A stretch of DNA of 64,000 nucleotides, taken from positions 4,408-68,407 of the forward strand of contig DAOUDW010000087.1 of the NCBI GenBank assembly GCA_034430895.1, written 5' to 3'. This stretch comes from Anaerolineales bacterium. GTDB taxonomy: Bacteria; Chloroflexota; Anaerolineae; Anaerolineales; E44-bin32. The notes below the pieces were generated by a model. The model ran no database searches. It was not told where the DNA came from and saw nothing but the letters and a program-made list of their open reading frames with translations. Every line of letters begins with the position of its first letter. Position 1 is the stretch's first letter. Of the stretch, positions 8,872 to 48,800 are shown in pieces. A program made the translations under genes and the position numbers.

Positions 8872-9356
8872 AGCGGACAGCACTGGCGGGCAGCAGCGTT
8901 GTTGTCGCTGCGATATTGATCGTTGGCTGTTCTCTCTTCGGCGAAGGAAACGATGGAACGGGTACACCCGAAGATGATCTCCAAACCACAAGCGGAACCC
9001 CGCGCGAGATCAGCGGCGAAGAAGCGCTGCAGCTCTACGGCGTCGAGACGGAAGATCCGGCTTCCATAGTGCCCACAAGCACCCCACTCTATTTCTTCCC
9101 GGCGCGCGCCTGGGTGCTGCCCAACGAAATTCCCTACGACACGAACGAGACAATCACCATCCTGCCCATGTTCACCCGTCCATCATTAAACGACGGCGGA
9201 ACCTGGCTGGGCGACCTGCAGACCGGGACGGAGGTCGTGCTGCACAGTGTGAACGCCGATCGCACGGCCTGCCTGGTCGAAGGACTCACCATGCAGGGCT
9301 GGTCCACGATTGGCTGGGTGGCCTGCAATCGGCTGCGTTTTTACGAAGGAGATTGA
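8868..9356 (+). CDS. lipoprotein with C-terminal SH3b-like module (copy 1 of 3)
   Basis: Lipobox AAILIVGC. ATGA overlap with the peptidase stop. The C-terminal 65 aa (ETITILPMFTRPSLNDGGTWLGDL...GWVACNRLRF) recurs at 12470-12670 and 21350-21450. Confidence 0.6.
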   Translation: MKRTALAGSSVVVAAILIVGCSLFGEGNDGTGTPEDDLQTTSGTPREISGEEALQLYGVETEDPASIVPTSTPLYFFPARAWVLPNEIPYDTNETITILPMFTRPSLNDGGTWLGDLQTGTEVVLHSVNADRTACLVEGLTMQGWSTIGWVACNRLRFYEGD

Positions 9357-9449
9357 TTCCAGGTCTTTTCGGTTTCGTCGGTGTCAAGGAAGAATCCACC
9401 GATTCTCAAGATTCCTGGAATCAACTACCAAGTGCAACTTTATGGTTTA

Positions 9450-9659: not shown

Positions 9660-10871
9660 CTATTGAAGCCACATCATGTTCGAAATGCTCTGGCCCTCAG
9701 AAAGACCGATATCGAGTGATGTGACTTCATAAGTAACCAGATCAACTATGTATGAATGATATACAGGCCCTGGATCGACGGATGTAAAAGCTAGCTGTAA
9801 TCCATCAGGTGATACAGATGACAGGTATGATATGTCATGCGGGATAGAAACCTCTTCTTCAAGATCACCTGATGCAGAATAAAGGTAGTGATGATACTCG
9901 TCGAGGACAGGATCACCAGTGACGATCTGTACTAACAAACGCTGCCCGCCATCTATCCATAGCCACGCATCGCACCAAAATTGCTTATCTTCCAGTGGAT
10001 GTGTTAGCTTGACCTCGCCGGACAATTCGGCATCTACAATATATAGTGCTGGTTGATAGACACCTTCTATTTCTGCAAGCCTAAACGTAACAAGACGATC
10101 TCCTTTTGGAGAGAATACGGGAGACGAGAGATTTTCCAATTCCTCTAACCCGGAGCCATCAATTTTTGCCCGCCAGGTTCCCTGATTAAATATCCCCGCA
10201 TTTGAGACTAGACCTTCCTCCCACATAATTATTGAATTAGAGTGCGTATTATAGAGTCGTAAAATATCGCTTCCTTTTTGTGTGATCTTCTTTAGATCTG
10301 ATCCATCTTCGCGGACGGAATATATGAAATCTTGTCCTTGCTCTTGTCCAATGAACACAATCGTGTCTATCCCTGGGAGCCAATATGCTCGTGTGAAACC
10401 GGTTTCGCCTGACAAATTATTTGCGACGTCAATTATTTCTGATCTGTTGGGTGTACTGACCATAAGCCGCTCAGATTGAGAAATCAGAATTTTATCGCCA
10501 TCGGGAGATACTGCTTCGAGTCGATATCCCTCATCAACAACTTGCGTCAGTTTGCTAGAGCCAACATCGAATGAGAAAATCCCTAAAGAGGGGCACGCAT
10601 CAACACAGGTTTCGCTTGTGTCGAGTATTTCCAATAGCAAGGTTCCCGACCCGCCCAAGGGAGTAATTGTCGGACTCGGTTGTAGGGTAGGAGTCATCGT
10701 GGGGGAAGGCGTTGGCTCTAAGGTGCTTGTTGGCTCTTTCGTAGCCTCTTGCGAAGAAGGCGCGCTGGCTTTTTCAGAAGAACTACAAGCAGTAACGAGC
10801 ACGATTGCAAACAACCCGATGCAAACCAGAATCGGCGCATTATATCCAGTTCCTGTCGCTTTTTGCTGCAT
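9660..10871 (-). CDS. PD40/TolB-like beta-propeller lipoprotein (paralog 1)
   Basis: Signal plus lipobox (VLVTACSSS), PTSTLEPTPSPT linker, and repeated SPDGDK / SPKGDR / SPDGLQ PD40-type motifs. ATG at 10871 follows AGGAGGG. Confidence 0.65.
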   Translation of the reverse strand: MQQKATGTGYNAPILVCIGLFAIVLVTACSSSEKASAPSSQEATKEPTSTLEPTPSPTMTPTLQPSPTITPLGGSGTLLLEILDTSETCVDACPSLGIFSFDVGSSKLTQVVDEGYRLEAVSPDGDKILISQSERLMVSTPNRSEIIDVANNLSGETGFTRAYWLPGIDTIVFIGQEQGQDFIYSVREDGSDLKKITQKGSDILRLYNTHSNSIIMWEEGLVSNAGIFNQGTWRAKIDGSGLEELENLSSPVFSPKGDRLVTFRLAEIEGVYQPALYIVDAELSGEVKLTHPLEDKQFWCDAWLWIDGGQRLLVQIVTGDPVLDEYHHYLYSASGDLEEEVSIPHDISYLSSVSPDGLQLAFTSVDPGPVYHSYIVDLVTYEVTSLDIGLSEGQSISNMMWLQ

Positions 10872-10966
10872 CACACCCTCCTGAGAAATTCCCTCGTAGC
10901 AGAGCATCAAACCAAAGGATGCCATTGGCTTTCATTCGGGAACATATGAAAAGCGTAATCACAAAA

Positions 10967-12160
10967 TTAATAAAGCCACATCATACTTGCAATTGCTTGA
11001 TCCTCGGGAAGATCAAACTCAAGTGGCGTGACTTCATATGTAAGCAGATCGAGCAGGTAGAGATCGTGGTTTGTTAAAAATAGCTGTAATCCGTCGGGGG
11101 ATACCTTTGTGTCTGACATCGGAAACGGAATATCAACTTCTTCTTCAAGCGCACCTGATGCAGAGAATATGAAAGAATACTGATGAATTTCGTAAGATGG
11201 CAATTCTTCGTCGACACTTACCAACAGATTCTTTCCGCCCCTTATCCATTGGATGTAAAGCCCATAATGCCGCCCGACAAGGTCAAATTCGATCGGAAGC
11301 GCAAGTTGAACTGCCTCCGATAAGTCTGCCGATGCTATATAAAATACCACATCAAATCCCGACGTTATTTCCCAATATGCAAGATGAGCTCCGGTTGGAG
11401 AGTAAACAGATCCCCTTATTTCCTTCAGGGTTTCCTGATTGGAGCCGTCCATGTTAGCTTTATGCCAAAGGGGGGGGGCAAAGTAAATTGAATTTTTGTC
11501 CTGTTCTAGCCACATGATTGAATTGCTTGAGTGAGTATTGGCAAGGCACCACAACTCCGCCCCTTGTTGTGTAATTTTCTTCAAATCCGTTCCATCTTCG
11601 CGAACAGAATATACATAATCTTGTCCTTGATCTTGCCCAAGAAAAACAATCGTGTCTGTTCCAGGAAGCCAATATGCCCTGGTACTATGACTGTCATTCC
11701 CTAGAAAATTCTGCGCAATGGCAACGAATTCCGATTCGTTGAGCAGTGCGAGCATAAGGTTTTCGGATTGAGAAACCAGGAATTTGTCGCCGTTGGGCGA
11801 TACGGCTTCAAGTGCGTATCCATCATCAGTAACCCTGGTGAATTCACCCGAGACGACATCGAGCGCGAATATTCCCAGATAATCATCAAATGTGGTTGGC
11901 CGCAGATCCAGGAGCACAACCCCCGACCCGCCTAAAGGAGTGGGGGTGACCGTCGGGCTTGGGCTGGGCGTTGGCGTCGACGAGGGAGAAGGCGTTGGCT
12001 CTAAGGTATCGGTTGGTTCTTTCGTGGCCTCCGGCGAAGGCGGCGCGCTGGTGACCGCAGACGAACTGCAGGACGTCATGAGCGTGATTAAGAATAGCAC
12101 GATGAAGATGGAAATGAGAGCGGTTGTTCCATACCAAAATCCCGCCGCTTTTTGTTTCAT
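10967..12160 (-). CDS. PD40/TolB-like beta-propeller lipoprotein (paralog 2)
   Basis: Same architecture as 9660-10871 and collinear with it (…AYWLPG.DTIVF.GQ.QGQD..YSVREDG.DLKKITQ…). ATG at 12160 follows GGGAGGA. Confidence 0.65.
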   Translation of the reverse strand: MKQKAAGFWYGTTALISIFIVLFLITLMTSCSSSAVTSAPPSPEATKEPTDTLEPTPSPSSTPTPSPSPTVTPTPLGGSGVVLLDLRPTTFDDYLGIFALDVVSGEFTRVTDDGYALEAVSPNGDKFLVSQSENLMLALLNESEFVAIAQNFLGNDSHSTRAYWLPGTDTIVFLGQDQGQDYVYSVREDGTDLKKITQQGAELWCLANTHSSNSIMWLEQDKNSIYFAPPLWHKANMDGSNQETLKEIRGSVYSPTGAHLAYWEITSGFDVVFYIASADLSEAVQLALPIEFDLVGRHYGLYIQWIRGGKNLLVSVDEELPSYEIHQYSFIFSASGALEEEVDIPFPMSDTKVSPDGLQLFLTNHDLYLLDLLTYEVTPLEFDLPEDQAIASMMWLY

Positions 12161-12281
12161 GAAATCCTCCCTGTTATTTACCTTGCACCAGTGAATCGAA
12201 TAAAAAAGCGCTGGCTTCAATAACCTTATTCAGAATACCCCATAAAGCGCTCAACCGCAAAACATACATCATTCACGCGGC

Positions 12282-12376: not shown

Positions 12377-12673
12377 ATGAGCAGAACGTTTTATGTAATC
12401 GGAGACGCAGACGATCTGGGGGTGGATGAAATGGTCAAATTGCTAGTCAGGCAAGATCCAGATGAGACCATTACGATCCTGCCCATGTTCACCCGTCCAT
12501 CATTAAACGACGGCGGCACCTGGCTGGGCGATCTGGAGGCTGGGAGCGAGGTCGTGCTGCAGGGGGTCAACGCCGATCGCACGGCCTGCCTGGTCGAAGG
12601 ACTCACCATGCAGGGCTGGAGCACGATGGGCTGGGTGGCCTGCAACCGGCTGCGTTTCGACGCAATGGATTGA
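12377..12673 (+). CDS. small SH3b-like protein (copy 2), no signal peptide
   Basis: 98-aa ORF. Its last 65 aa are near-identical to the C-terminus of the 8868-9356 product. Confidence 0.55.
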   Translation: MSRTFYVIGDADDLGVDEMVKLLVRQDPDETITILPMFTRPSLNDGGTWLGDLEAGSEVVLQGVNADRTACLVEGLTMQGWSTMGWVACNRLRFDAMD

Positions 12674-12805
12674 TGGTTCCCCGGAGTAGTACGCCGCTTG
12701 AAACATGTGATAGACGAGTGCCCTGCTGATCGGGATAATTCTTTTGCCTCGAATTCTCATAAATCCATCCGTGAGTAGTTCGTAAGATCAACAAGTGCGT
12801 TCATT

Positions 12806-12831
12806 CGAACGGATTTCCATTTTCGGCCAGC
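12806..12831 (+). repeat. short interspersed repeat, GAACGGATnnnCATTTTCGGCCAGC type
   Basis: gaacggatttccattttcggccagc matches 54943-54966 at 22 of 25 positions, and also matches 57641-57664. Confidence 0.6.
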
Positions 12832-14937: not shown

Positions 14938-14963
14938 CTGTAAAGGGAAAAACCGATATCCAT
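14938..14963 (-). repeat. degenerate copy of the CCTGTAGGG-GGAAAAAC interspersed repeat
   Basis: ctgtaaagggaaaaaccgatatccat matches 57531-57556 at 19 of 26 positions. It lies at the distal edge of the triplicated cassette. Confidence 0.35.
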
Positions 14964-15009
14964 TTCAGGATGCGGAGGAATTCATTCGAACGGGTGCACA
15001 TTTTCAGCC

Positions 15010-15097
15010 AGGACAGCCGGGCACGGGAGAAGCGCAGGCCGATCAGGGCGCCAATAAACCCGAAGACGAAGAGCTAAGCGACCAATCCCCAATCCAT
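15010..15097 (-). pseudogene. decayed third copy of the 50-codon microprotein gene
   Basis: Same GGAGGTATAACCC-ATG-GAT-TGG context as 16190 and 17290, but TAG at codon 8 (ATG GAT TGG GGA TTG GTC GCT TAG). Homology fades after about 85 nt. Confidence 0.5.
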
Positions 15098-15100
15098 GGG

Positions 15101-15718
15101 TTATACCTCCGTTTCTTCCGTTGAAGTCTTCGTTGCCTGCTTCTGTTCCCAGATGCGGTGCGAAATCGCTTGCGCCCCTATCAACATTCCCAGGATTGTA
15201 AGGATTCCTACGGACAACATAACGTAATCACCCCTACCACGATGTGATGAATACAAACCCATCAACACGCCTGCCCCCGACAAAGGCACAATGACGCGCC
15301 GGACCACTTGCAGATAGATCTTTCCTGCTTTTGACCGCGGCGTCATCTGCTCACGCAGGATCACCGCAGAGATCCTTGAATCGATGTAGGGCAGGAACCA
15401 CGCCAATGCATACAACGCCAGCAGCAGCAGAACCCATCCTGTCGAAATCGGGGATACCCAATCAATCATGCGTAATCCGCTTGCAAACAATAACAACAGC
15501 CAGGCATTGAAACTGATCTCACGTCCCCACAGGAAGCGAGTTCTTGCTGTGAGAACCATGCCGCATGTTCCCAGGAATGTCAGCGAGATGGCTGTGACAA
15601 CCGAGGTGGTTGTTGGGCCCGGGGGAAAGATCGCTTCCAGCAACCCTATTCCACCCAGGACGAAAAGGGAAAGTGCGAGAATTTTCCATAGGGGCATCTT
15701 CCTGGCCGGGATTTTCAT
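15101..15718 (-). CDS. polytopic membrane protein, cassette paralog C
   Basis: Collinear with 16194-16838 and 17294-17917 (…ILREQMTP…SHRIWEQKQATKTSTEETEV). ATG at 15718 follows GAGGTGG. Confidence 0.6.
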   Translation of the reverse strand: MKIPARKMPLWKILALSLFVLGGIGLLEAIFPPGPTTTSVVTAISLTFLGTCGMVLTARTRFLWGREISFNAWLLLLFASGLRMIDWVSPISTGWVLLLLALYALAWFLPYIDSRISAVILREQMTPRSKAGKIYLQVVRRVIVPLSGAGVLMGLYSSHRGRGDYVMLSVGILTILGMLIGAQAISHRIWEQKQATKTSTEETEV

Positions 15719-15794
15719 CGATTGTCCACCTCGTTTGGGTTGTACTCTGTGCCCAATGATAGCAGGCAAATGGGATCATCACATATCTACCTAA

Positions 15795-15971
15795 TCACCC
15801 GCCAAACAACCCGCCGAAGAAATCTCCTACGGCATCGGCTGCATCGCCTACTGCAGATTTCACATTGTCGATCCCATTCTCAACCGCGGTTCCAATATTA
15901 TTGGCTGTCTGTTCGAGAGTTGTCGCCACATCGGTTACCGTATTTCGCACGTCATCACCTGGAATGGGCAA
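15795..15971 (-). other. orphan duplicate of the 3' end of gene 18004-21066 (58 codons, only a TTG start)
   Basis: Translates to LPIPGDDVRNTVTDVATTLEQTANNIGTAVENGIDNVKSAVGDAADAVGDFFGGLFGG*. It is collinear with the last 52 residues of the 1020-aa protein, and an in-frame TGA lies immediately upstream. Confidence 0.5.
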
Positions 15972-16037
15972 TCAAGAGGCACTGCAATCCCCCATTTTAT
16001 TACTTGTCCCCACAACAAGCATCAAGTACGATGGTAG

Positions 16038-16190
16038 TCAGTCGGATTTCCTTTTATCTTGACCCTTATCTTTTTTCTCTTCTTCCTTCACTCGCTCTTC
16101 ACGCAACCGCCGGGCGCGGGAGAGCCGCAGGCCAATCAGTGCGCCGATGAACCCGAAGACGAAAAGACGAGTGACCAGTTCCCAATCCAT
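16038..16190 (-). CDS. 50-aa single-TM microprotein with lysine/arginine/glutamate-rich tail (copy 2)
   Basis: Not in the ORF track. [50 protein letters not shown]. The RBS GGAGG lies inside the last codons of the upstream gene (GAG GTA TAA CCC ATG). Confidence 0.55.
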
Positions 16191-16193
16191 GGG

Positions 16194-16838
16194 TTATACC
16201 TCCGCTTCCTGATCCGAGGATTTCGTCTTGCGCGTCTGTTCCCATATCTGGTGGGAAAATGCTTGGGCACCAGCTAATGCGGATAAGATACCAACAATAC
16301 CCATAATGAGATATACAACATTTTCCTCACCCGATCGCGATGCATGTAATCCTGTCAGTGCGGCGATACCCCCGATGGTCGGCAGGCCCCCCAAAGCGAT
16401 ACTCATGCAGCCTTTCCCCAATCTCGTCTCCGGGGCCATTTGCTCGCGCAGTATGATGGAAGACAGCTTCGGTCTGAGGTAGGGCAACAACCAGGCCAAC
16501 GCGTATAGCACGAGAAACACCAGAAGCCACCCCGTCGGAATCAGGTAGACTTCATTTAGAGCACGCAATCCTGTGGCATAAATGATAAACATCCATGAAT
16601 GAAATGATATCAATAGACCCCAAAGGGTTCTTTTCCAAAATCCGAAAATAATGGATATCGGTCCAATTATTGTATGCAGAATACCGACCCAAATCGCTGT
16701 GGAAGAAATTCTATCAGGTGTAATAAAAATTAAAATGGCCGAAAAAAAGCTAAGGACAAGAAACAATCCAAATGACAAAAGAAATACATTTCCCCAGGTC
16801 CCATTTCGAGGTCTATTGTTCATCGACAAGTTATCCAT
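16194..16838 (-). CDS. polytopic membrane protein, cassette paralog B
   Basis: The C-terminal half is near-identical to paralog A (…[38 protein letters not shown]…[20 protein letters not shown]). The N-terminal half is divergent. Confidence 0.65.
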
Positions 16839-16892
16839 TCAATTGAGGTTTATTATTTCTCACTGCTAACAAGAAATCTATGATGCATGGTT

Positions 16893-17072
16893 TTATTTTC
16901 CTCCAAACAACTCGCCAAAGAAATCACCCACAGCTTCAGCTGCATCGCCGACTGTAGATTTCACATTGTCGATTGTATTATCAACCGCTGTACCAATAGT
17001 ATTCGCAGTCTGTTCGAGAGTTGCAGCCACATCGGTCACCGTATTTCGCACATCATCACCTGGAACGGGCAA
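16893..17072 (-). other. orphan duplicate of the 3' end of gene 18004-21066 (59 codons, only a TTG start)
   Basis: Translates to LPVPGDDVRNTVTDVAATLEQTANTIGTAVDNTIDNVKSTVGDAAEAVGDFFGELFGGK*. An in-frame TGA lies immediately upstream. Confidence 0.5.
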
Positions 17073-17137
17073 TCAAGAGGCATTGCAATCCCCAATTTAT
17101 TACTTGTCCCCATAACAAGCATCAAGATCGTCAGTGG

Positions 17138-17290
17138 TCAGTCGGATTTCCTTTTATCTTGACCCTTATCTTTTTTCTCTTCTTCCCTCACTCGATCTTC
17201 ACGCAACCGCCGGGCGCGAGAGAGCCGCAGGCCAATCGGGGCGCCGATGAACCCGAAGATGAAGAGACGAGCGACCAGTTCCCAATCCAT
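17138..17290 (-). CDS. 50-aa single-TM microprotein with charged tail (copy 1)
   Basis: Not in the ORF track. [50 protein letters not shown]. Same TAA-CCC-ATG coupling to the upstream gene. Confidence 0.55.
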
Positions 17291-17293
17291 GGG

Positions 17294-17917
17294 TTATACC
17301 TCCGCTTCCTGATCCGAGGATTTCGTCTTGCGCGTCTGTTCCCAGATCTGGTGGGAAAATGCCTGGGAGCCGGCCAATGCGGTTAGGATACCTATAATAC
17401 CCATAATGAGATATACAACATTTTCCTCGCCCGATCGCGATGCATGTAACCCGATCACTGCGGCGATACTCCCGATGGTCGGTAAGCCGCCTAACGCGAT
17501 ACTCATGCAGCCTTTCCCCAATTTCGTCTCTGGGGCCATTTGCTCGCGCAGTATGATGGAAGACAACGCAGGTCTGAGGTAGGGCAGCAGCCAGGCCAAC
17601 GCATACATCACGAGAAACACCAGAAGCCACCCCATCGGGATCGGATAGGCTGCGTTCAGCGCGAATAATCCAGTTGCATATATGATAAACATCCATGAAT
17701 GCCCACCAAGAAAACGCGCCCATACAATCTTAGTCCTTGCTGATAATAGAACAGCTATTGCCCCCATAAGAGGATGAGAAACCGCGACAATAATTGCTAT
17801 AATTGATCCATTGGATATGAAGATTGGCATCAAGGAAAAGACGCCCAATATAATACAGTAAGAAAGCATTACAATCAGTACTTTCCATAAAGGCATATTC
17901 CTCACTGGGATTTCCAT
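17294..17917 (-). CDS. polytopic membrane protein, cassette paralog A
   Basis: 207-aa ORF with 5-6 hydrophobic helices. AAGGTGG RBS. Lies directly downstream of the 1020-aa gene. Confidence 0.65.
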
Positions 17918-18003
17918 AAATCCACCACCTTTAGATTTTTTTAGGGATTATTTTGTCTTTCATCTAATAAAATAGTAACTAGAAAAAATCGACCATGTAA
18001 AAA

Positions 18004-21000
18004 TTAATCTCCTCCAAACAATCCGTTGAAGAAGTTAGATACAGCATCACCGGCTGTCTTTGCAGCATTTCCTACAGTAGATTTCACATTATCGATTCCA
18101 TTCTCAACCGCGGTTCCAATGTTATTCGATGTCTGTTCGAGAGTTGCGGCCACATCGGTTACTGTATTTCGCACGTTCTCGATCGTGTTATTCACGGTGG
18201 TTTGGATATTATCCGATACTTCCGATAACTTGTCGCCAACATGATCTGCGATGACTTGCGCATTCTGACGAATTCCCTTCCAGGCGGATAAACCAGAATC
18301 GAGTGTGGCTCCAAATTTCTGTTTGATCTCAGCGATCTCTTCCCCGAAGAAATGATCGACTGCCAGGCTGGCTCCGAGGCCAACGAGTACGGTAGCCCCT
18401 GCTAATACAGCGAATGGTGCAGTGAAACCGAATGCAGCAGTCACAAGCAATGATCCTACTCCAACGGCTACAGCGGATCCAATTCCAACGCCTGTGGAGA
18501 CAGCAGTATCCACGATAGTCGATGCAGTGAACTCCCCGAGGCTCCCGCCTTTGTTGCTGCCCAGAAGGTAGTCATATGCATTTACGGCGGCGCTTACCCC
18601 AAGGTTGGTTTTAATACCGTTAAACGCCCTTCGTCCCAATGATTTTAACGTCGTCCAGGAAAGTGTCGTTGGTTTATATCGGGTCCCCGGGATATTGACA
18701 TCACTGCCTGTCCGAAAGGCAAGCTTCTCACCAGGCGGTACCCCCGGTGCGCTGACGGAAACATGCCCGGATGGAAGGGGAGTGAAACGAATTTTCCGAA
18801 GATCGATGGCGCTGGCCATGCTATTAATAAATTTTCCAGCCTTCCCGATCCACTTCATAATGCCAGTCGGAGGCGCTTCGATTGTTTCCTCTTTTACTTG
18901 GGTGTGTCGGTAATCCACGCGATCCGCTCGACGCAACTCCTCTTCCTGTGCGCGCAGTTCGGCTTGCTTCTGCTCCTCTTTACGCTTGCGCAGATCTTCC
19001 TCGCGCTGCCGCTGCTTCTGGGCCTCCACGTAGATGAAGTACGGCGGCGCGGGCTGGCCGGTGGTAATCCCCTGGGCTTCTCGCTCGGCTTTAATCGCCT
19101 CCCGTTCCGCTTCGAGGCGGGCGGCCTCCTGTTCCGCCTCCCATTTCGCCTGGGCGGCGTTCTGGGCCTGCTTCTCCTCCAGGGCGATCTGCGTTTGGTT
19201 GAAGATCGCCGCGGCTGCGGCTTGTTTCTTTTCCTCGTCCTTGCGCTTCTTCTTCGCCGCGGTGACCACGTTCATCGCTGCGCCAACCGCCGCAACGGCC
19301 GCCGCGCCGGCCAGCAGGTTGCTCGAACCTGCAGGCGGCGCGATCTCTTCCGTTTCGGTTTCCGGCTCGCTTTCGAAGGTCACCACGCTCGGCGCTGCCG
19401 GGGGATCCTCCGCTGCAGGTGCCATATCGCCACCACCCGTATCACCGCCACCCGTATCTCCAGGCGGCTCGGCGGGCGGATCTTCCGGCGGCGCGACACT
19501 GAGCACGCCGGGATCGTCTTCCTGCTCCACTTCATCCGGCTCGGGGATCACGATTTCGCCCCAGGCGGCGCCCTTGTTGCCCACCTGATCCCAGGCCTCC
19601 ACTTCCACCGGGTAGCCGCCGATGGGCGCCACGATGTCCCCAAAGAGGCGGTCCCACTTGAAATCGTCCTGTCCGCTGTGCCAGTTGTAGACCCTCTCGC
19701 CGTATGAACCGCCGTGAATCGTCAGGCGCACGCGATCGACGCCGATGCCATTATCGACGACGTTGATCGCCACCCGCCGCCAGATCGGCCACGAAGCGGG
19801 GATGTAGATATGCGGCTCGCCGTTGTCGACCATGATCGTGACCGCAGCCGCCCCGCCCACGTTTCCGGCTTGGTCGAGGCCGCGGGCGCGCACGCTGTAG
19901 CTGCCATTGGCTACCGTGTGCGTGTCCCATGTCGTCGACCAGTTGCCGCCCCCGTCCGGGCTCAAACCGCTCCAGGAACTCCCGCCGTTGGTTGAGATCT
20001 CGGCGCCGCTCAGATTCAGGTCGCTGCTCACGCCGCTGAGCGTGATCGTACCCGTGGCCCAGGTTGTGCCCGTGGGGTCGGTGATGACCGTGGTCGGTGC
20101 AATGGTGTCGATCTGGAAGGACATGCTGGCGCTGTCGCTTAATCCGGCGTTGTCGGTTGCCAGCAGCTCGACTGTGTGATTTCCGTTGTTCAACGTGATC
20201 GGTCCGCTGTAGGCGTTCCATCCACTGCCGTCGACCGCGGCCTGGAAGGAGGCCAGTCCCGATCCGGGTGAGGGATCGGCGGCGGAAGCCTCGATCGTCA
20301 CCGCGGAGACGTACCAGGATCCGCTGCCAGAAATCCCACTGGCGCTGGCGTTGACGGAGGGCGGACGCGTGTCCACGCCCCGATTGGTGCTGCCCATCAG
20401 GGAGCTGTCGCCCCAATCGGAGAGCGCCCAGAATGTGAAGGCGTTGGCGCCTTCGACCAGGTTGATGGCGCAGGAATCCCCGGAACAGGCGAACGTGGCC
20501 CCATTTTGGGTGCCTTCCAGAGTGATGATGCTGTACCCGCTGAGCGGTTCGTCCCCGGAGAGTGAGAGGCTGGCCGCGGCGGTGCAGTAGCCGTTGTCGC
20601 CGGTCTGCGGGCAGTTGATGTTTCCGGAGATCGTCGCCGGCGGATGGGTGGTCGTCTGCGCCACGCTGCGGCAGCCGGTTTCTCCAGCGCTGCAACTCAC
20701 AGTGCTGCTGGACGGTGTGATCGAGCAGGAAGTCTCCGGGTCGTTACAGCAAGACGGCCAATCAAATGGCCAACCGGATCCGCAGGAATGAGAATCGTTA
20801 CTGAAGTAGCCAGATACATTAGAAGGACAACTATCGTTGGGTGGTACGTATAAATTTAGCGTGCAGCTGTCATACCCCGGGCCGACAGGGTCATGGACGG
20901 CCACGTAATGGCAGCGTTTGCGCTGGTTGACGTATGTCGTCACGGTGCGGTCGGGGCCGATGTAATCGGCCAGGACCGGCACGACGACCAGCAGGCCGAG

Positions 21001-21066
21001 CAGCAGCGCCAGCGGCAGGGCGCGGCGAAAAATCTGTGTCGTTTTGTGAGAAATATTCGTTTTCAT
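18004..21066 (-). CDS. large bitopic cell-surface protein: signal/anchor, Cys-rich region, Ig-like domains, Pro-rich linker, TM, charged coiled-coil, glycine-zipper hydrophobic region, helical-repeat tail
   Basis: Features in order: N-terminal LPLALLLGLLVVVPVLA; 20+ Cys in the first 200 aa; DTRPPSV / DTIAPTT Ig-like boundaries; PPEDPPAEPPGDTGGGDTGGGD linker; TM LLAGAAAVAAVGAAMNVVTAA followed by KKKRKDEEKK; EAEQEAARLEAEREAIKAEREA coiled coil; GVGIGSAVAVGVGSLLVTAAFGF...GLGASLAV. Confidence 0.7.
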   Translation of the reverse strand: MKTNISHKTTQIFRRALPLALLLGLLVVVPVLADYIGPDRTVTTYVNQRKRCHYVAVHDPVGPGYDSCTLNLYVPPNDSCPSNVSGYFSNDSHSCGSGWPFDWPSCCNDPETSCSITPSSSTVSCSAGETGCRSVAQTTTHPPATISGNINCPQTGDNGYCTAAASLSLSGDEPLSGYSIITLEGTQNGATFACSGDSCAINLVEGANAFTFWALSDWGDSSLMGSTNRGVDTRPPSVNASASGISGSGSWYVSAVTIEASAADPSPGSGLASFQAAVDGSGWNAYSGPITLNNGNHTVELLATDNAGLSDSASMSFQIDTIAPTTVITDPTGTTWATGTITLSGVSSDLNLSGAEISTNGGSSWSGLSPDGGGNWSTTWDTHTVANGSYSVRARGLDQAGNVGGAAAVTIMVDNGEPHIYIPASWPIWRRVAINVVDNGIGVDRVRLTIHGGSYGERVYNWHSGQDDFKWDRLFGDIVAPIGGYPVEVEAWDQVGNKGAAWGEIVIPEPDEVEQEDDPGVLSVAPPEDPPAEPPGDTGGGDTGGGDMAPAAEDPPAAPSVVTFESEPETETEEIAPPAGSSNLLAGAAAVAAVGAAMNVVTAAKKKRKDEEKKQAAAAAIFNQTQIALEEKQAQNAAQAKWEAEQEAARLEAEREAIKAEREAQGITTGQPAPPYFIYVEAQKQRQREEDLRKRKEEQKQAELRAQEEELRRADRVDYRHTQVKEETIEAPPTGIMKWIGKAGKFINSMASAIDLRKIRFTPLPSGHVSVSAPGVPPGEKLAFRTGSDVNIPGTRYKPTTLSWTTLKSLGRRAFNGIKTNLGVSAAVNAYDYLLGSNKGGSLGEFTASTIVDTAVSTGVGIGSAVAVGVGSLLVTAAFGFTAPFAVLAGATVLVGLGASLAVDHFFGEEIAEIKQKFGATLDSGLSAWKGIRQNAQVIADHVGDKLSEVSDNIQTTVNNTIENVRNTVTDVAATLEQTSNNIGTAVENGIDNVKSTVGNAAKTAGDAVSNFFNGLFGGD

Positions 21067-21349: not shown

Positions 21350-21450
21350 CTGCAGGGGGTCGACGCCGACCGCACGGCCTGCCTGGTCGAAGGAGTCACC
21401 ATGCAGGGCTGGTCCACGATGGGCTGGGTGGCCTGCAATCGGCTGTGTTT
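21350..21450 (+). pseudogene. fragment of the SH3b-like module (copy 3, about 33 codons, no start)
   Basis: LQGVDADRTACLVEGVTMQGWSTMGWVACNRLCF aligns with the C-termini of the 8868-9356 and 12377-12673 products. There is no upstream module and no RBS. Confidence 0.55.
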
Positions 21451-21592
21451 TTCTGAATCATTTGGTGTTCGTTAAAACCTGGATTCAACGACCAGGTGCA
21501 GCCTCATCCCACGTTGGTGTCGATATCCATTCACAACGTAGATTATCCTAACGATCTGCATACTTTCTCCCGGCAGTATGGAGTACGCCTTT

Positions 21593-23160: not shown

Positions 23161-23423
23161 ATGCAATGGTTCCTGCAATGCAATATTGGGACGGCATCAT
23201 GTATTCGATTACTATTGCAGATGGCTTGAAACAGACAATAGGATAACCATAACGAGAATTCGTTCCCACACCGGGCGGATTGGGCTTGCAAATTATTTAT
23301 TTCATAGTATTACGGTGTAAATCGTCGTATTTACGCTATGACAGCCCACACTTGGTTATCGTCGTTGATGCTGGTAGATTCGAGTTTATAATAAAGATGG
23401 CAACGAGGAAACGGAGGGCAGTT

Positions 23424-23645
23424 ATGGCACGCCAGGTTTGGCAGGTTCTCAAGACCAAGCACTGCGAACGCATCGGCGAGATCGCTTCGTTGGAAGTACA
23501 TCTCATCTTCCCGGACGATATCCTGCCGGACCAGGGGCCGCGGGTGATCGGCCATCGCTGCTCGCACGGTTTGCGCTGCAATCAACTCGATGCGCCCACC
23601 TGCCAATGGGCAGGGACGCTGCCGGGTTACGATCCGTTCCGTTAG
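23424..23645 (+). CDS. 73-aa Cys4 protein of unknown function (copy 1)
   Basis: GGAGGG RBS. MARQVWQVLKTKHCERIGEIASLEVHLIFPDDILPDQGPRVIGHRCSHGLRCNQLDAPTCQWAGTLPGYDPFR. Near-identical second copy at 28405-28626. Confidence 0.55.
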   Translation: MARQVWQVLKTKHCERIGEIASLEVHLIFPDDILPDQGPRVIGHRCSHGLRCNQLDAPTCQWAGTLPGYDPFR

Positions 23646-24233
23646 TTGTTCTGTGTCGCAAGATCGTTGAACTTCAATATTTTCAACTACCAATCAAGGA
23701 ATATGGGAAGGACCGAAAAGGTCCTTGCTTGTTTTATGGGGATAATTCGCCGCCTGGCGTATATTCGAGGACATTTATTAGAATGGACGCACATTTTCGG
23801 CCATTACAGGCTGATATCGGGCGTGGCACTTGGGTTGGGGGTGTCTGTTAGCGGCGCGGTCGGTTGCGGATTGGATGTTTGACTTGCAGTGATCGCAGTT
23901 AGAATCGACGTTTTCGTTGTACAACCCGCGATCACTAGGATCGAGATCGCGATCGCTGTGGTGGCATTTTTCTTCATAGTGAAAGCATACACCATACCAG
24001 CTTGATGTTCAAAACACGATACACCTACAGGGGAACTATCACGGCGGAGAGATCAGCGAACCTGCAACACGAACATCTTTCTGCTCGGCGATATCCTAAG
24101 CGACACCCGCTTCGGTGTTGACGATTTCGAGATCGGTGTCGTCAACGATTACTTGCCTAGTCTGCCTTGTTGCACCTCGGAGTTGAAACCAGGAATTAAG
24201 CTCTGGCGGAGTTACGCATGATCCGCATTCGTC

Positions 24234-27938: not shown

Positions 27939-28404
27939 AGGAGAATACAAGGGCGAATCTCAGAGTTTTCCGATGGGTGTATTGGCCGAATTTGAACATC
28001 TTCTACGCAATGCAGTCATGGTCTTGGCTTCTTGATTGGAAAGGCTGATCGTGATTTCATTTCTCCACCATTTATATGAAACCAACCTGTATATGATTGA
28101 ATGGCATATAAATCTTACAAATAGATATTTGACATTATCATAACCATCTTGTAATTTCGGGCAGCATCAGCTATTTAATATTTGGGAACACTACATCCAG
28201 ATGATGTTATTCCCTGAAATATAAAAATGGGGTAAGGTCATATTTTTGGTTGTGAATTTGGATTCTATATTTTCGTTTCATAGTATTACGGTGTAAATCA
28301 TCGTATTTGCTTTGTGACAGTCAACACTTGGGGGCGGTTGCACTTGGGTGTAGATTCCGATGTATGATATAGTAGCGAGCGTGATGAGGGAACGGAGGTC
28401 GATC

Positions 28405-28626
28405 ATGGCACGCCAGGTTTGGCAGGTTCTTAAAACCAAACACTGTGAACGCATCGGCGAGATCGCTTCGTTGGAAGTACATCTCATCTTCCCGGCCGAT
28501 ATCCTGCCGGACCAGGGGCCGCGGGTGATCGGCCATCGCTGCTCACACGGTTTGCGCTGCAATCAACTCGATTCGCCCACCTGCCAGTGGGCAGGGACGC
28601 TGCCGGGTTACGATCCTTTCTGTTAA
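28405..28626 (+). CDS. 73-aa Cys4 protein of unknown function (copy 2)
   Basis: Differs from copy 1 at 3 of 73 residues. The shared upstream block tttcatagtattacggtgtaaatc is also duplicated. Confidence 0.55.
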   Translation: MARQVWQVLKTKHCERIGEIASLEVHLIFPADILPDQGPRVIGHRCSHGLRCNQLDSPTCQWAGTLPGYDPFC

Positions 28627-39516: not shown

Positions 39517-39836
39517 GGTGTATAAACTTGTAAGTGAGATCGGTAAAAGCAGATTTGATGAGGGTATCTTAAGTATCGTCATAAGTGCGATATCATGTGG
39601 TGTTAAGTGTCCTAGTAGGTCGATTTATCACCAAATGCTTGAATTGCCGCTCGAGTTGTTGTAATGTGATACAAGTTTCGGTATTGTTCATACATTCCCT
39701 TTCGCTGGTATTCAACAACCCAATATCCAACTCCCTGCGTGGTTAAACCATCCTTTGCGCATACCAACAAAGCCCACGATGTTCCAGGGAGATGACAGAC
39801 CTGTATCTTGAAAGTTACTGTTTCTGGAGAGGAAAA

Positions 39837-42800
39837 ATGTCCATGTCCCGCACAACCCTTACTTCTGTAATTCGCGATTTTTCACGACCGCGCTTCCGGC
39901 TTTATCGATTACGATCAGCCATTATAAAGATATTAAACGCCGGCGTAGCTGCATCCATGCTTACTTCGATGAGCGGCGTGGCTCTGGCTAGTGCAGCATC
40001 TGATGCGGATACAAACGTGGAGATTCCTCTCCCGGCCCCTTACAAGAGTATCGAAGCTCTCGTAGAGCCCAACATCGTCCAGAGTACATTCGACAGCGAT
40101 GACGAAGGATGGACGATCGTCGGTGATGGGGACGGTCCGACATATAACGCCACCGGTGGCAATCCGGGTGGGTACATCAGCTCTACAGACCAAGCGTCAA
40201 GCGAATATTGGTATTGGCAAGCCCCGGCGAAATTCCTCGACGATCAATCCGCTGCATATGGCAGAACACTGAGCTTCGACCTTGTCCAAAGCGTCACCGA
40301 TGACCAGGATGATCAAGATGACGTTGTCCTGGTGGGAGATGGTATCACGCTTGTATTTGACACTTCATATAACCCGGGAGATACGTGGACGCATTATGTG
40401 GTCACGTTACATGAAAGTGCCGGATGGCTAAATTCAAGCACAGGCCTTGCGCCATCTTCTATCGAATTCACCCAAGTTTTGACGAATCTCGAATCTCTTC
40501 TCATCCGCGGCGAGTATCGTGTTGGCGATGATACCGGCGGACTCGACAATGCTGCTTTTTCGGTACTCTGCCCAGAAACGGGGAATCTCATTGTTCCAAT
40601 TGGAACTTCGTGCTGGCTCGAGGCTGGCGAATATACATTCGACAGCATCACCGTCGAAGCTGGCGGGCTGATTTATCTCGAAGGTGATCCAGTTACCGGC
40701 GAAGGCGTCATTCTCAATTCCACGACAATCGTTGTGGAATCTGGAGGTGAGATGACCGCCACTGCGCTGGGATACCCGATCGGCCAGGGTCCGGGAGCCG
40801 GGAGCGGGACCGATAAGACGGGCGGCGGGGGACACGGCGGCTATGGAGGAAATGGGACCGAATACAATGCAATCGGCGGTGTGGGATACGGTTCGCTGTT
40901 CGAGCCCATCACGCTGGGTAGTGGCGCGGGAGATCGCCCTGAGGGTGGCACTGGAGGGGGTGCGATCCATCTCATTGTGAACGGCACACTGCAGCTGGAC
41001 GGCACGGTATTGGCCGATGGTGGTGCTGGCACCCAATACGAACGGGGTGGCGGCGCCGGTGGCAGCATCTGGATTGAGGCGGCCTCATTGGCCGGTTCGG
41101 GCCTGATCCGCACGAATGGCGGCAATGCGGGTTACATGGGCGGTGGAGGAGCGGGTGGGCGCATCGCCATCGATGCAAGCAGCAACAGCTTCACCGGATC
41201 GGTGAACGCACACGGCGGCACGGGCAACCAGGCCGGTGGTGCGGGGACAATCTACTGGACAGTGGATGATCACCTGGTGGTCGACAACGGCGGCAACAGC
41301 GGTAAGCAAACCCCCCTCGAGGAAGACGATTACGACTTCGAAAGCATCACACTCAATGGCAATGCCATCCTGCAAGTGGAAGGGGCTAACTCTTCTATCA
41401 CCCTGGACAATACAACCATCCAGGGGGATGGCACAGGCAGGCTCACTCCATTCGGGACGGCGTATGTTCCTGTTGACCTTATTATTAATGATTACACGTT
41501 GAATTTGGAAGGGCAGATGCCGGGGGTGCAGACTGTGACTGTCGAGTCGGGCGGCGGTCTGATGTTCAGGCCGGGCTCACAGTTCTACTCTGGCTCGTAT
41601 GCCTTCCAGTCTATTGAGGTGAGAGACGGCGGCAAATTGTATGCATACCCGTATATCGCGGGTGGCGGGGTTTATTCGAATGATTATGGCCTCACGCTCG
41701 AGGTCGGGAACCTGACCGTCGATGCTGGTGGTGAGGTTACAGCCACCGGGTTGGGATACCCGATTGGGCAAGGACCGGGAGTCGGGAGTGGAAGCGATGA
41801 CACGGGTGGTGGGGGACACGGTGGTCTGGGAGGAAATGGAATTGAAGCCAATGCAACGGGTGGTGGGGCATACGGGTCGCTTTTCGAGCCCATCACGCTA
41901 GGCAGTGGCGCGGGTAATGTAGGACAGGGGGGGAGCGGAGGGGGCGCGATCCATTTACTGGTGAGCGGCACACTGCAGCTGGATGGCACAATATCTGTCG
42001 ATGGTGGTTCTTCTACCCAATACGAACGGGGAGGCGGCGCCGGTGGCAGTATCTGGGTCGAAGCGGCATCCTTTACCGGGACGGGTTTGATTCGCGCCAA
42101 TGGTGGCAATGGAGGCACACAGGGTGGTGGTGGTGGCGGCGGGCGCATTGCCATCGATGCAAGCAGCAACAGCTTCACGGGCTCGGTGAACGCGAGTGGC
42201 GGTACAGGGAACGAGAGAGGTGGGTTTGGTACGATCTACTGGACGGTGGACGATCATCTGGTGATCGACAATGGCGGGGTCAATGCTAGACCATCTGTTA
42301 TCGTCGAGGGGGATTATGATCTCAATCTCATCACGCTCAGTGGCAATGCTATCCTGCGGGTGGAAGGTGCCAGCTCATCCATCACTCTTGATAACACAAC
42401 CGTTCAAGGAGATGGTACAGGTAGACTGATCCCATTTGGCACAGTCTTAACTCCGGCAGCTTTCACGGTTGATAACTTCGCCTTGGATTTGGAAGGAAAA
42501 TTTGATGGGGTTACGAATCTCACCGTAGGAAGCAACGGCGAATTGATCCTACGAACATATACAGCGCTTTATTCTGGAATCCACACCTTCTCCAGTGTTG
42601 ATGTGGTTTCTGCCGGGCGGCTAATATTCGTACCATACAATAATGGGGATTCCGATTACACGAACGATTCTCCATTCGAGCTGCACGTAGACACACTGAA
42701 TATTGATGCTGCCGGCATCATCACCGCTGAAGGTTCGGGGTATCCTCGCAATCAAGGTCCTGGCACGCCGACGTCAAGTGGTGGTGGCGGGGGTGGTCAC

Positions 42801-45800: not shown

Positions 45801-48800
45801 GACACGCTACACACCAGCGAATACGGTTCGACAGTGCAGGAACTCGAACTGAATTCGGTTCATAACAATCCGGGGCATTACGTATCCGTAGCCGATTTCA
45901 GCCTGGGCATCGGTCTTCAATCCACCACGGCGTATGTTTGCGCTGAATCTCCTGAAGATGCCAGCGAAAACGCCATGGATGCCTTCCATCTCAAGCCCTC
46001 GGAAATTGCTTCGGCCTGTGCTTCGGTCGGTATTCCTGTCGAATCGGTCTTGTCCTCCGGAGACGATTGCTGCGCAGCGTACGGCGCCACACAGGTTAAC
46101 GTGGGTGGCGAAATCAATACTCGCACGGGGGGCATGGACTATTCTTTTGTTGACATATCCATCCCCACCTCTGCTGGAACGCTTTCTTTCAAACGATGGT
46201 ATTCCACACTCACGCTCGAGGACTATGCGGATACACTAGGATATGGTTGGACTCATAGTCTGGACACGCGTCTGATCTTCCCCGACGATCCTCTCGGTCG
46301 TGAGGGTGTGGTATTGATGAAGCTGCATGCATCCAATCGCTACCAATTCACCATCGAGGATGACGGCACCTTCACACCCTTTCCTGGATTTACTGGGGAG
46401 TTGACCGCTTCCGGTGATCCGCTTACGTTTACTTACGCAACACCAGGACAATACGATTATCATTTCGACGCGGATGGGAAATTAATTTCCCGATCCGACC
46501 CTCGGGGTAACGCATTGCAATACACATATAACGCGGAAGACCGTTTAATCCGTGTCGAAGACGACAATGGGCAACGTTACCTGGAACTGGATTACGATGC
46601 ATTGGGACGAGTTAACTCGGTTCAGGATCATACAGATCGTGGCGTTACCTTTAACTACAACGCCGCCGGTGACTTGAGTTCCAGCGTCGATTTACTCGGC
46701 GGCACCTGGACCTACTTTTATGATCCTACGCTGCCGCACTACCTGTCTGAAGTGCGTGATCCCAGCGGCACCACCCTCGAACGCACGGTTTTCGATGAAC
46801 AGGGCCGCGCCGTAGAACAGTACAACGGTGAGGGCGAGTTGGCCGTGCGTCTCGAATATGAAGGTTTCGGTTCTACCAAGGTCTACGAAGCCACCGGCAA
46901 CCAGTCGATGCACGTCTACGACAGCAATGATGCCATTGAACGCCAGGAGGATCCTTTGGGTGGCCTGAACCGGCGTGAGTACGACGACAACTTCCGCCCC
47001 ACTATGATCACCGACGAGGACGGCGACACTACCCACCTGACCTGGAGCGAGGACGGCACCAACCTGACCCAGGTGATTGATGCCGAGGGCAATCCGGTCA
47101 ACCTGTCTTACGACGAAAACAACAACCTTACTTCTATTGTCGATCCGCTCGATACGGAGACCAGCTATGCCTACGACGGGTTGCTGCTGACCTCCAGCAC
47201 CGACGACGAGGGCAATACCACCAGCTACACCTACACACCTGAAGGGTATCTGCAAAGCATCACCGACGCGGCCGGAAATACGACATCTTACACTTACGAT
47301 TCTTATGGCCAACAAGTTTCGATGACCGATGCCTCAGGCAACACCTGGCTCTACCGCTACGACGATCTTGGCCGCCTGATCGAGAACGAGGATCCCAACG
47401 GCGTGATCGCACGCCGCGAGTACGACGCTGCCGGACGGATGATCCGCTCGACGCGCAACTACGATCCCGCCCGCCCGCAGAACGACGAGAACCTTTACAA
47501 CATTGTCACCGAGTACGTCTACGACGCCGTGGGCAACCAGATCGAAGTCATCGACACCTTCGGGCGTAGCACACAGTATGTCTACGACGACGCCAATCGT
47601 CTAATCCGCATGTTCGATTCCGCCGGCAACGAGACGACCAATACCTTCAACAACGCCGGGCAATTGGTTGCTACGACCGATGTCTTGGATCGCATTACAA
47701 CTTTCGTCTACGATGAACTCGGCCGCATGGTGGAGATGCACGACGCGCTGGGCAACATCACCACCACGGTTTACAACCCCGACGGCACCGTCGCCAGCAC
47801 ATCCGATGCGTTGGGAAACAGTACTTCGTATACCTACGACGACCTCAAACGCGTCGCGGCCACAACCGATGCCCTCGACGGCACGACGACCACTACCTAC
47901 GACGAGTTAGGCAACGTGATCGCCACGACGGACGCCCTGGGGAATACCACAACCTACGAATACAACTCGCTAGGCCAATTGACACACCAAACCGACCCCG
48001 AAGGTGGAAATATACAGTACGTTTACGACGAACTCGGCAACCGCATCGAGACCATCGATCCGCGCGGGAATTCGACGTTTTATGTCTACGACGATCAAGG
48101 CCGCCTGGAGACGGTCACCGATGCGCTGGGCGGTACAACGACATACACCTACGACGCCTTGGGCCGTCGCCTAGCCATTACCGATGCAGAGGATAACACC
48201 ACCAGCTACAGCTATGATGAACTCGGTCGACAGGTTTCTGTAACTGATCCGTTGGGGAACACGACTTCTACGGAATTCGATGCGCTCGGCAATGTACTCA
48301 GCCGTACGGACGCCAATGAAGAGACCACCACGTATGTTTACGACGTGCTTGGCCGACTGGAATCCCAGACCGACCCGCTAGGTGGCATTACGACCTATAC
48401 CTACGACGCCGCCAGTAACCAACTCACGGTAACCGACGCCGAAGGGCACACCACCACGACGGTCTACGACGAACTCAACCGGCCGGTCTCGGTGACTGAT
48501 CCCCTGGGAAATACAACCACCACAGCCCATGACGCCACCGGCAACGTACTCGCCACCACCGACGGCTCGGGGCAGACGATCACGTTCACCTACGACGAAC
48601 TGGGCCGCCAGGAGACGGTCACCGACCCGCTGGGCAACACGACGAGCTACGCCTACGACGCCGTGGGCAACCGCATCTCGCTGACCGACACCAACGGCGT
48701 GGTCACACGCTACGAGTACGATGGGCTGAACCGTCTCACGGCAGTGGTCGAGAACTACCTCTACGGCGCGCCAGCCGATCACGAGACCAATGTGCGTACC

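Follow-up and report, generated by a model that had tools for sequence, protein, structure and literature searches.

Small accessory subunits that are translationally coupled to a polytopic partner are known from CydX with CydAB and from KdpF with KdpABC. In the arrays of contact-dependent growth inhibition (CDI) and Rhs systems, orphan fragments have a junction motif (e.g., VENN) in common with the main gene, beyond which their sequences diverge into toxin domains of unrelated types (PMC3150448). The present analysis concerns a tandem cassette array in a 64,000-nt stretch of an Anaerolineales bacterium contig (DAOUDW010000087.1), hereafter called the window, to whose positions all coordinates refer. 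The array follows a gene for a large surface/membrane protein of 1020 aa (18004..21066, delineated by open reading frame (ORF), Pfam-type domains, and hydropathy), and both lie entirely on the minus strand. A preliminary description had read the array as three copies of an orphan C-terminal gene fragment, a polytopic membrane protein, and a 50-codon gene, and had likened it to orphan toxin-tip/immunity arrays. The reading that we tentatively favor is a different one, namely a conserved membrane-complex module in which a unit of a six-transmembrane (6-TM) protein and a microprotein may receive a helical tail, and which was expanded and shuffled by recombination between repeats.

Downstream of the large gene (21066–18004), three head-to-tail units were identified by ORF listing and direct reading of the strand, and the repeats were confirmed by repeat finding and a three-way alignment of the units. 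They occupy the intervals described before (18176-17138, 17072-16038, and 15971-15010), with all elements found at, or within a few bases of, these positions. Tail, 6-TM protein, and microprotein together make up the real repeat unit, and in the first of the three units the tail is fused to the large protein. This first tail is followed by 6-TM gene A (17294..17917; 207 aa, N-terminal part of type a, with the Shine–Dalgarno (SD) sequence AAGGTGGTG upstream) and microprotein gene A (17138..17290; 50 aa). The second unit comprises tail gene 1 ("orphan 1", 16893..17072, a 59-codon frame with a likely GTG start at 17051), 6-TM gene B (16194..16838; type b, 214 aa, or 209 aa from the ATG at 16823), and microprotein gene B (16038..16190; 50 aa). 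Tail gene 2 ("orphan 2", 15795..15971, a 58-codon frame with a likely GTG start at 15950) opens the third unit, in which it precedes 6-TM gene C (15101..15718; divergent type d) and a microprotein C pseudogene (15017..15097). Gene C encodes 205 aa from the ATG at 15718, with the SD sequence GAGGTGGA, and its maximal frame is a 222-aa ORF from the TTG at 15769. In the pseudogene, codon 8 is a TAG (15076–15074) and homology is lost past codon 27. The membrane genes of about 210 aa and the 50-codon genes were therefore found once per unit as expected, with the third microprotein gene broken, and unit 3 was indeed more diverged (its 3' part is ~55% identical to those of A and B).

As determined by self-BLAST, the strongest repeat over the 64 kb of the window is a block of 803 nt with 88.8% identity (15799–16601 versus 16900–17701, E = 0). 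Within each copy of this 0.8-kb block, the 3' two-thirds of a 6-TM gene are joined by a microprotein gene, a spacer, and an orphan tail, and the 5' part of gene B, which is unique, lies between the two copies. In addition, the tail segments have 84–89% identity to the 3' end of the large gene (18062–18176). Sharing of the last 52 codons of the large gene had been reported; the repeat is real, and its length was corrected to the last 56 codons in the large gene (18174–18007) and 51–52 codons in the orphans, with a 4-codon indel.

The orphan frames of 58-59 codons directly follow an in-frame TGA, as noted before, and each opens at a TTG there. Start signals were found further inside: the sequence AGGTGA stands 4 nt before an in-frame GTG (the V of VRNT), an arrangement kept in the window and in two related contigs (L005 and L010). 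The likely products have 52 aa (orphan 1, VRNT…FFGELFGGK) and 51 aa (orphan 2), and the annotation of the metagenome-assembled genome (MAG) at NCBI likewise calls both orphans as genes of 51–52 aa. Their amino acid identity to the main tail is 72–77%, and they share 83–93% nucleotide identity with each other, being alignable over their full length. Comparison of orphan 1 with orphan 2 by the Nei–Gojobori method gave 15 synonymous differences (Sd) at 39 sites and 8 nonsynonymous differences (Nd) at 114 sites, corresponding to a ratio of nonsynonymous to synonymous substitution rates (dN/dS, omega) of 0.14 (Fisher p 1.3e-5). Across genomes, the orphan-versus-orphan omega ranged from 0.06 to 0.30, with 0.14–0.30 for orphan 1 and 0.06–0.14 for orphan 2. 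Furthermore, free tails recur in distant arrays: L026 has a 140-aa free tail ORF, ending in GFIGGLFGRGG, before its second 6-TM gene; L030 has a short one in the same position; L003 has free tail ORFs of 148 and 121 aa that start right behind the last transmembrane helix (TM); and in L017 the orphan tail is joined to the preceding 6-TM protein in a natural 6-TM::tail fusion. The spacers upstream of the orphans open with native sequence that is seen past the terminal microprotein in L005 and L007 (…AAATGGGGGATTGCAG…). Judged from these sequences, the "orphans" appear to be small genes under purifying selection and not debris.

The mosaic structure was quantified for thirteen 6-TM genes from five genomes, the 5' part being taken as aa 1–71 (approximately TM1–TM2) and the 3' part as aa 95 to the end. 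Between genes A and B, the 5' parts share 46% nucleotide identity, with saturated synonymous sites and a dN of 0.67, and the 3' parts share 90%, with a dS of 0.32; the gene-conversion-like pattern suspected in the preliminary description was thereby put into figures. The 5' parts form four discrete types (a, b, c, and d), with 42–57% nucleotide identity between types and 76–100% between orthologues across genomes, and these variable 5' thirds appear to be ancient allele types. The 3' parts of all a/b/c copies are 78–96% identical irrespective of the genome (W_A–L005_a 96%, W_A–L007_b 94%, W_A–W_B 90%). Strictly intragenomic concerted evolution was rejected, since the 3' parts are as similar between genomes as within; this argues for recombination or cassette exchange over the shared block rather than for concerted evolution that is purely local.

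Copy number and order of the units differ between genomes. A single unit of type b was found in L007, units a and b in L005, units a and d in L010/L022, units a, b, and d in the window, and at least five units together with a second large gene in L003. The main tail and type-b 6-TM gene of L007 resemble orphan 1 and gene B of the window; similarly, unit 2 of L030 resembles the main tail and 6-TM gene of L013/L025. In L003, the large protein is 76% identical in its N-terminal half and 39–47% identical in its C-terminal half, and the adjacent 6-TM gene is 38% identical. The second large gene of L003 (6336–10130) is N-terminally truncated and has the same Ig region, joined to an unrelated Gly-rich C-terminus ending in GFFEGLFGK. 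It is followed by genes for a 393-aa protein with two TMs and a 54-aa membrane microprotein, which replace the 6-TM/microprotein pair; this points to a C-terminal module of another kind that has partners of its own.

An exhaustive profile search for the 6-TM family yielded 135 cluster representatives of ~200 aa at E ≤ 1e-3 (a word-index search gave 11 clusters), and a metagenome scan with a narrow 6-TM alignment yielded 7 loci. No Pfam model was found in the members, and NCBIfam, PADLOC, and PHROGs were silent for the three window copies. The AlphaFold2 model of 6-TM protein A, based on a 65-sequence alignment, has a predicted local distance difference test score (pLDDT) of 94.3 and a predicted TM-score (pTM) of 0.87 and contains six TM helices. 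A Foldseek comparison of this model with the PDB gave no match (best E 1.3, TM-score ≤ 0.35, ExbB at E 6). The best-conserved parts of the protein are a predicted cytoplasmic helix/loop (LSxxLxREQxAPxTRxG) and the C-terminal SHQLW..RPW, and the most conserved motif, LSxxLxREQxAPxT, is carried by a short helix at positions 116–127 of the model. Family-wide, conservation of at least 90% is confined to E125, three Pro, and one Gly. An enzymatic role, as an intramembrane protease or sortase-like protein, was considered and rejected, the Cys, His, and Arg residues of the close clade not being conserved family-wide. All three 6-TM ORFs of the window are intact, with omega values of 0.13–0.34 in their C-terminal parts. 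One family member (P0108, 439 aa) is a fusion of the 6-TM protein to a C-terminal cytoplasmic tetratricopeptide repeat (TPR) domain.

The microprotein of 50 aa begins with MDW and has one TM, followed by a polybasic stretch and then a mixed-charge tail. Its SD sequence, GGAGGT, is contained in the 3' end of the 6-TM gene in each of the three units, and 3 nt separate the stop codon from the start codon; in L013, L017, and L030 the two codons overlap or abut. This suggests that the 6-TM and microprotein genes are translationally coupled.

In the large protein, a Kyte-Doolittle scan revealed hydrophobic segments at residues 10–40 (signal/N-terminal anchor), 583–605, and 856–905. Residues ~200–500 contain the Ig-like domains Big_13 and Big_7 and an OmpL47-type barrel domain (252–317, E 3.9e-14). 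The segment 583–605 is a predicted stop-transfer TM (19252..19320) and is followed by KKKRK; an equivalent hydrophobic and polybasic segment is also present in L013, L014, and L015. Between this TM and the hairpin lie a charged coiled coil and a conserved mid domain. Except for the hairpin loop, the positive-inside rule predicts a cytoplasmic location for the C-terminal 415 residues. The Gly/Ala-rich TM hairpin (residues 856–905, 18352..18510) is preceded by the invariant motif EF-x-AST-x-V-D (Asp853). Among ten homologues with 22–93% identity to the window protein, the hairpin invariants are D, G, and P, including the Asp of this motif and the Pro that opens the second helix.

The tail itself (residues 906–1020, 18004..18351) is an amphipathic hendecad helix that is predicted to be cytoplasmic and ends in NFFNGLFGGD. 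Its 11/3 helix periodicity is reflected in a hydrophobic-moment peak at 98° (residues 896–1020), and its best-conserved part is the end, a family-wide FFxGLFGG motif followed by 0–3 more residues. Tail family searches gave just sub-threshold matches (apolipoprotein, ApoLp-III, CsmC, ZorA tail, and tape-measure), and among viral contigs no tail relatives were found. The tail represents a hendecad amphipathic structural class with no family membership, its Pfam matches lying below threshold. Kinship with the ZorA tail (PADLOC, E 2.9e-5) or with phage tape-measure proteins (PHROGs, E ~2e-4) was rejected as compositional helical-repeat similarity. A 386-aa protein (P0012) on a 1.6-kb JGI contig carries the hairpin and hendecad tail, at 46% identity, on another N-terminal region without Ig domains, which indicates that the C-terminal anchor module is portable.

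The conservation of the module was followed over the window clade (L001–L012), L013/L025 (34–36% identity), L026 (30%), L017, L014, L015, L029, L030, and L031. A hairpin-bearing protein followed by a 6-TM gene was found in every lineage with readable upstream sequence (~9), and the linkage of the large protein with the membrane genes, on which the earlier proposal depended, thus holds throughout the lineages examined. The microprotein is present in 7 of the ~9 lineages. It directly follows the 6-TM gene in the window clade, L013/L025, L026, L029, L030, and L031; in L017 it stands behind the second 6-TM gene, the first being the one fused to the orphan tail. In one sublineage, its place is taken by a TPR domain fused to the 6-TM protein (P0108) or by an overlapping TPR gene (L014 1452–2769), and in L015 no microprotein was identified up to the contig end. 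Together with the TPR fusion P0108, the TPR gene of L014 points to a cytoplasmic adaptor character, which we count in favor of a membrane-complex module. As the flanking genes differ between genomes, the module seems to be self-contained.

The anatomy, the conserved module, the selection on the tails, the mosaic, and the differences in copy number and order are established by these observations; from them, we infer a physical interaction among tail, 6-TM protein, and microprotein, a topology, and some physiological role. The large protein would display its Ig-like domains outside and cross the membrane once; a cytoplasmic coiled coil and mid domain would follow, then the Gly-rich hairpin with its invariant Asp, re-entering the membrane, and finally the cytoplasmic tail of 11-residue repeats. 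The 6-TM protein and the translationally coupled one-TM microprotein would form a stoichiometric membrane partner complex that receives the tail and possibly the hairpin. In this complex, the conserved cytoplasmic face of the 6-TM protein would accommodate the conserved tail end, either tethered to the large protein or free, the tail of units 2 and 3 being made as a free protein of 51–52 aa. The unit of tail, 6-TM protein, and microprotein would have been multiplied through unequal homologous recombination, and recombination or gene conversion would keep the 0.8-kb block similar. This block brackets the ~0.3-kb 5' parts encoding TM1–TM2 (and part of TM3), so that crossing-over between blocks would alter the copy number, the order of types, and the 6-TM type beside the large gene. 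Owing to this cassette shuffling, a cell would carry several alternative isoforms of the partner complex.

Several points weigh against the membrane-complex module. It leaves the job of the complex and the upkeep of several TM1–TM2 types unexplained. The tail variants do not track the 6-TM types cleanly, type a following tail T1 in three genomes and a different tail in L003, so that a cognate pairing is hypothetical. The AlphaFold model of the natural 6-TM::tail fusion (P0026) has a confident helix at the start of the tail and carries no docking readout. Furthermore, some orphan tails of L003 have decayed (a 37-codon remnant), and the third microprotein gene of the window is a pseudogene cut by the dispersed repeat GGCYGAAAATGTRCAYCCGTTC. 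Finally, the low dN/dS of the tails could partly date from spells as the end of the main gene, given that modules shift between the main and the orphan position.

A polymorphic membrane toxin, as implied by the preliminary description, is the first alternative to be considered, and we regard it as unlikely. The hairpin and/or the tail would permeabilize membranes, the 6-TM protein and the microprotein would serve as inner-membrane immunity, and the extra cassettes would guard against the variants of other strains or serve reloading. The layout fits this idea, with a large surface protein followed by repeats of a C-terminal piece and small membrane genes, and so do the exchange of modules between main and orphan positions (L007 versus the window; L030 versus L013/L025) and the transposase/insertion sequence (IS) or repeat elements at the array ends. 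The L003 array points in the same direction, both through its first large protein, which is conserved in the N-terminal half and divergent in the C-terminal half beside a divergent 6-TM gene, and through its second large gene, which differs in the C-terminus and in the genes that follow. Moreover, membrane-embedded immunity proteins are usual for pore-forming bacteriocins and Cdz (PMC5380434).

Other features speak against the toxin-tip/immunity analogy. No toxin, pre-toxin, delivery (two-partner secretion (TPS)/FHA, Rhs, LXG, or type I secretion system (T1SS)), or immunity family was recognized with Pfam, NCBIfam, PADLOC, or PHROGs; in the large protein, a search of the same collections for a delivery scaffold or toxin domain gave just the Ig-like/OmpL47-type domains and sub-threshold helical-repeat matches. 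The orphans are fully alignable and mildly divergent and have their own SD sequence and start, the opposite of CDI orphans. They carry just the helical tail and no glycine-zipper hairpin, the region that had been suggested as a possible membrane-active module. The region past the stop-transfer TM (KKKRK and the charged coiled coil), which includes the variable half of the large protein, is predicted to be cytoplasmic and would therefore not be presented to neighbors. The variable element of the cassette is TM1–TM2 of the membrane protein and not a "tip", and recombination at the tail would defeat its own purpose, replacing the "immunity" gene but leaving the putative toxin in place. In addition, the hairpin residues are invariant over lineages at 25–40% identity, as is typical of a structural element rather than a polymorphic toxin, and fusions of the 6-TM protein with TPR domains exist.

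A bolder version of the membrane-complex module, which we consider rather improbable, is an undescribed transmembrane machine of filamentous Anaerolineae, in which an Ig-domain sensor/adhesin would plug its tail and Asp hairpin into interchangeable, channel-like 6-TM/microprotein units. It is to the same low degree conceivable that the array of this machine would be a recombination-driven repertoire, e.g., one that senses envelope stress or phages and gates the membrane, or one that mediates recognition of kin or between cells. If this were true, the locus would represent a new class of modular, polymorphic membrane device and not a toxin–immunity pair.

We judge it quite improbable that the array is a neutral by-product. 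In that case, a segmental duplication with its left breakpoint inside the large gene would have left redundant, slowly decaying copies with occasional gene conversion. The pseudogene of the third microprotein, the strong divergence of unit 3, which is the most diverged, and the broken orphan tails of L003 agree with such a decay, and the hendecad repeat could favor breakpoints in the tail. Purifying selection on the tails argues against it, as do the three intact and constrained 6-TM ORFs (with the C-part omega values given above). The N-part types are old, yet 76–100% conserved between genomes, and tail-containing arrays recur independently in L026, L030, and L017.

The 6-TM protein as a very distant MotA/ExbB/TolQ-like channel subunit is highly doubtful. 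It would be built around the TM of the microprotein (conserved Asp2) or around the hairpin (invariant Asp), and would link ion flow or gating to the surface protein with its helical, ZorA-like tail. The family profile matches TM3–TM4 of Bacillus subtilis MotA (PDB 6ysl) at E 6.8e-4, with P-xx-G-xx-G-xxx-G aligned, and MotA_ExbB is the Pfam family weakly matched most often by the members (5/65 at E ≤ 10, best 0.16). ZorA tail models give a weak match to the tail (E 2.9e-5), and the invariant Asp at the start, i.e., the cytoplasmic end, of the hairpin helix is a lead only. Against these hints, 0/65 members match PF01618 at E ≤ 0.01, the family hidden Markov model (HMM) has no match to Escherichia coli MotA, TolQ, or ExbB, even unfiltered, the hhalign probability is 2.1%, and the fold has no match in the PDB (Foldseek best E as above). 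The microprotein is predicted to be N-out/C-in, opposite to MotB, ExbD, and TolR, and has no outer domain, and the ZorA and tape-measure matches sit in low-complexity helical repeats. Membership of the 6-TM protein in the MotA/ExbB/TolQ family was therefore ruled out by HMM, hhalign, and fold tests, and the similarity stays a motif-level lead.

An assembly artefact with one falsely triplicated unit, for which solely the general risk of repeats in metagenome assemblies speaks, can practically be dismissed: the units differ by at least 11% even in the most similar block and are unalignable in their 5' parts, related genomes have 1, 2, 3, and at least 5 units with differing orders of types, and two independent assemblies of different sources, an NCBI MAG (GCA_964606275.1, contig L001) and JGI metagenome 3300031337 (contig L002), are collinear with the window across the whole array with one mismatch each.

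Tandem cassette arrays behind large surface-protein genes are known. New are the unannotated families and a fold without a solved relative, as well as the finding that the "fragments" are genes and that the variable element is the first two helices of the partner. If the array is a membrane-complex module as proposed, its core is a conserved operon of Anaerolineae, consisting of a surface protein with hairpin and tail, a 6-TM protein, and mostly a microprotein. The parts of this module are absent from Pfam, NCBIfam, PADLOC, and PHROGs, nothing in the PDB corresponds to the 6-TM fold, and 135 protein clusters would gain a name and testable partners. For annotators, it would be a reminder that a small gene under selection may hide behind an apparent "orphan gene fragment", and that in-frame 3' fragments beside tandem paralogues need a selection test before they are labeled as pseudogenes or silent cassettes. 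The locus would also offer a clean natural case of cassette shuffling, with a homogenized block around ancient TM1–TM2 types and differences among close genomes. Its layout would be formally like that of toxin/immunity orphans with the polarity of variation reversed, and the purpose of the TM1–TM2 types would be testable.

The distal boundary of the array is formed by the GGCYGAAAATGTRCAYCCGTTC repeat in the window, L003, L005, and L007, where it lies just past the last microprotein gene. In the window, this copy (14985..15011; 14989–15009 in the copy list) truncates microprotein C. The element, GGCYGAAAATGTRCAYCCGTTC(TA/GA)…, has a length of ~25–30 nt and occurs in 5 copies, all on the minus strand, compared to 0.06 expected by chance; the further copies are located at 12808–12828, 23782–23802, 54945–54965, and 57643–57663. 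It often stands right behind a minus-strand stop codon; at 54.9 kb and in L005, it extends into a longer stretch of shared sequence (…GAAAACCTCRTCCGGATGGATCAA…). The element may be the end of a miniature inverted-repeat transposable element (MITE) or IS, or a structured 3' element; it had no Rfam match, and the Rfam scan of the whole window gave zero matches. Downstream of the arrays of L003 (~12640–12790) and L010 (~11880–12000), a palindromic GC-rich element resembling repetitive extragenic palindromic (REP) sequences or MITEs was observed (GTAGGTTGGGTTG(A/G)GG…AAACCCAACC…GGTGTTGGGTTT…CCCTCAACCCAA).

Promoter and terminator scans gave counts no better than shuffled controls, so that internal transcription units are unsupported. 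The neighbors of the array are an iron-type ABC importer, Fur, a beta-lactamase-like gene, and an FGE-like gene, without a T1SS. A segment encoding …LQGV(N/D)ADRTACLVEG(L/V)TMQGWSTMGWVACNRL… is present in three copies with 89–96% nucleotide identity (9147–9357, 12464–12674, and 21350–21452), two of which flank the region with the array and the large gene. Other dispersed repeats pair 23300–23644 with 28276–28625 (87%, 354 nt) and 54518–54685 with 62137–62304 (85%, 170 nt). Two adjacent paralogous genes of ~420 aa (9660–10925 and 10967–12220) have segments that are 82–83% identical, and a 4825-aa ORF on the plus strand (39792–54269) contains many internal tandem repeats of 71–79% identity (self-BLAST, 48.0–52.5 and 40.7–42.4 kb).

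Among the described systems, the CDI/Rhs arrays (Poole et al. 2011, PMC3150448) are similar in that a large surface gene is followed by modules of its 3' fragment and small gene(s), that modules are exchanged between main and orphan positions among strains, and that IS or repeats lie nearby along with homologous segments for recombination. The fragments described here differ in being homologous throughout, with no divergence behind a junction motif, and in their predicted translation signals (AGGTGA and GTG), and they contain no recognizable toxin. Furthermore, the variation resides in the first third of the membrane-protein gene, delivery machinery of the TPS/FHA/Rhs kind is absent, and a cytoplasmic location is predicted for the variable half of the large protein. 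With the pore-forming bacteriocins (colicin A/E1 and their immunity proteins; CdzC/D–CdzI, PMC5380434), the locus shares a Gly-rich hairpin by amphipathic helices and a polytopic membrane protein encoded downstream. No match to the colicin pore domain (PF01024) or to Cdz proteins was found, however, nor a T1SS or lysis gene; the partner has 6 TM helices instead of 3–4 and comes with a coupled microprotein, and the hairpin is conserved across distant lineages.

Similarly, the MotA/ExbB/TolQ–MotB/ExbD/TolR complexes have in common with the 6-TM protein the P-xx-G-xx-G-xxx-G motif in the penultimate TM and a partner TM with a conserved Asp, and ZorA of the Zorya system shares the long cytoplasmic helical tail behind a TM hairpin. 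Profile, profile–profile, and fold comparisons nevertheless fail, the number of helices and the orientation of the small partner differ, and a peptidoglycan-binding domain is absent here. From CydX and KdpF, the microprotein and its partner differ by having no homology to them and by being repeated as a cassette that is tied to a large surface protein. Like these subunits, the microprotein has at most 50 aa and one TM, is encoded directly behind its polytopic partner, and is conserved together with it.

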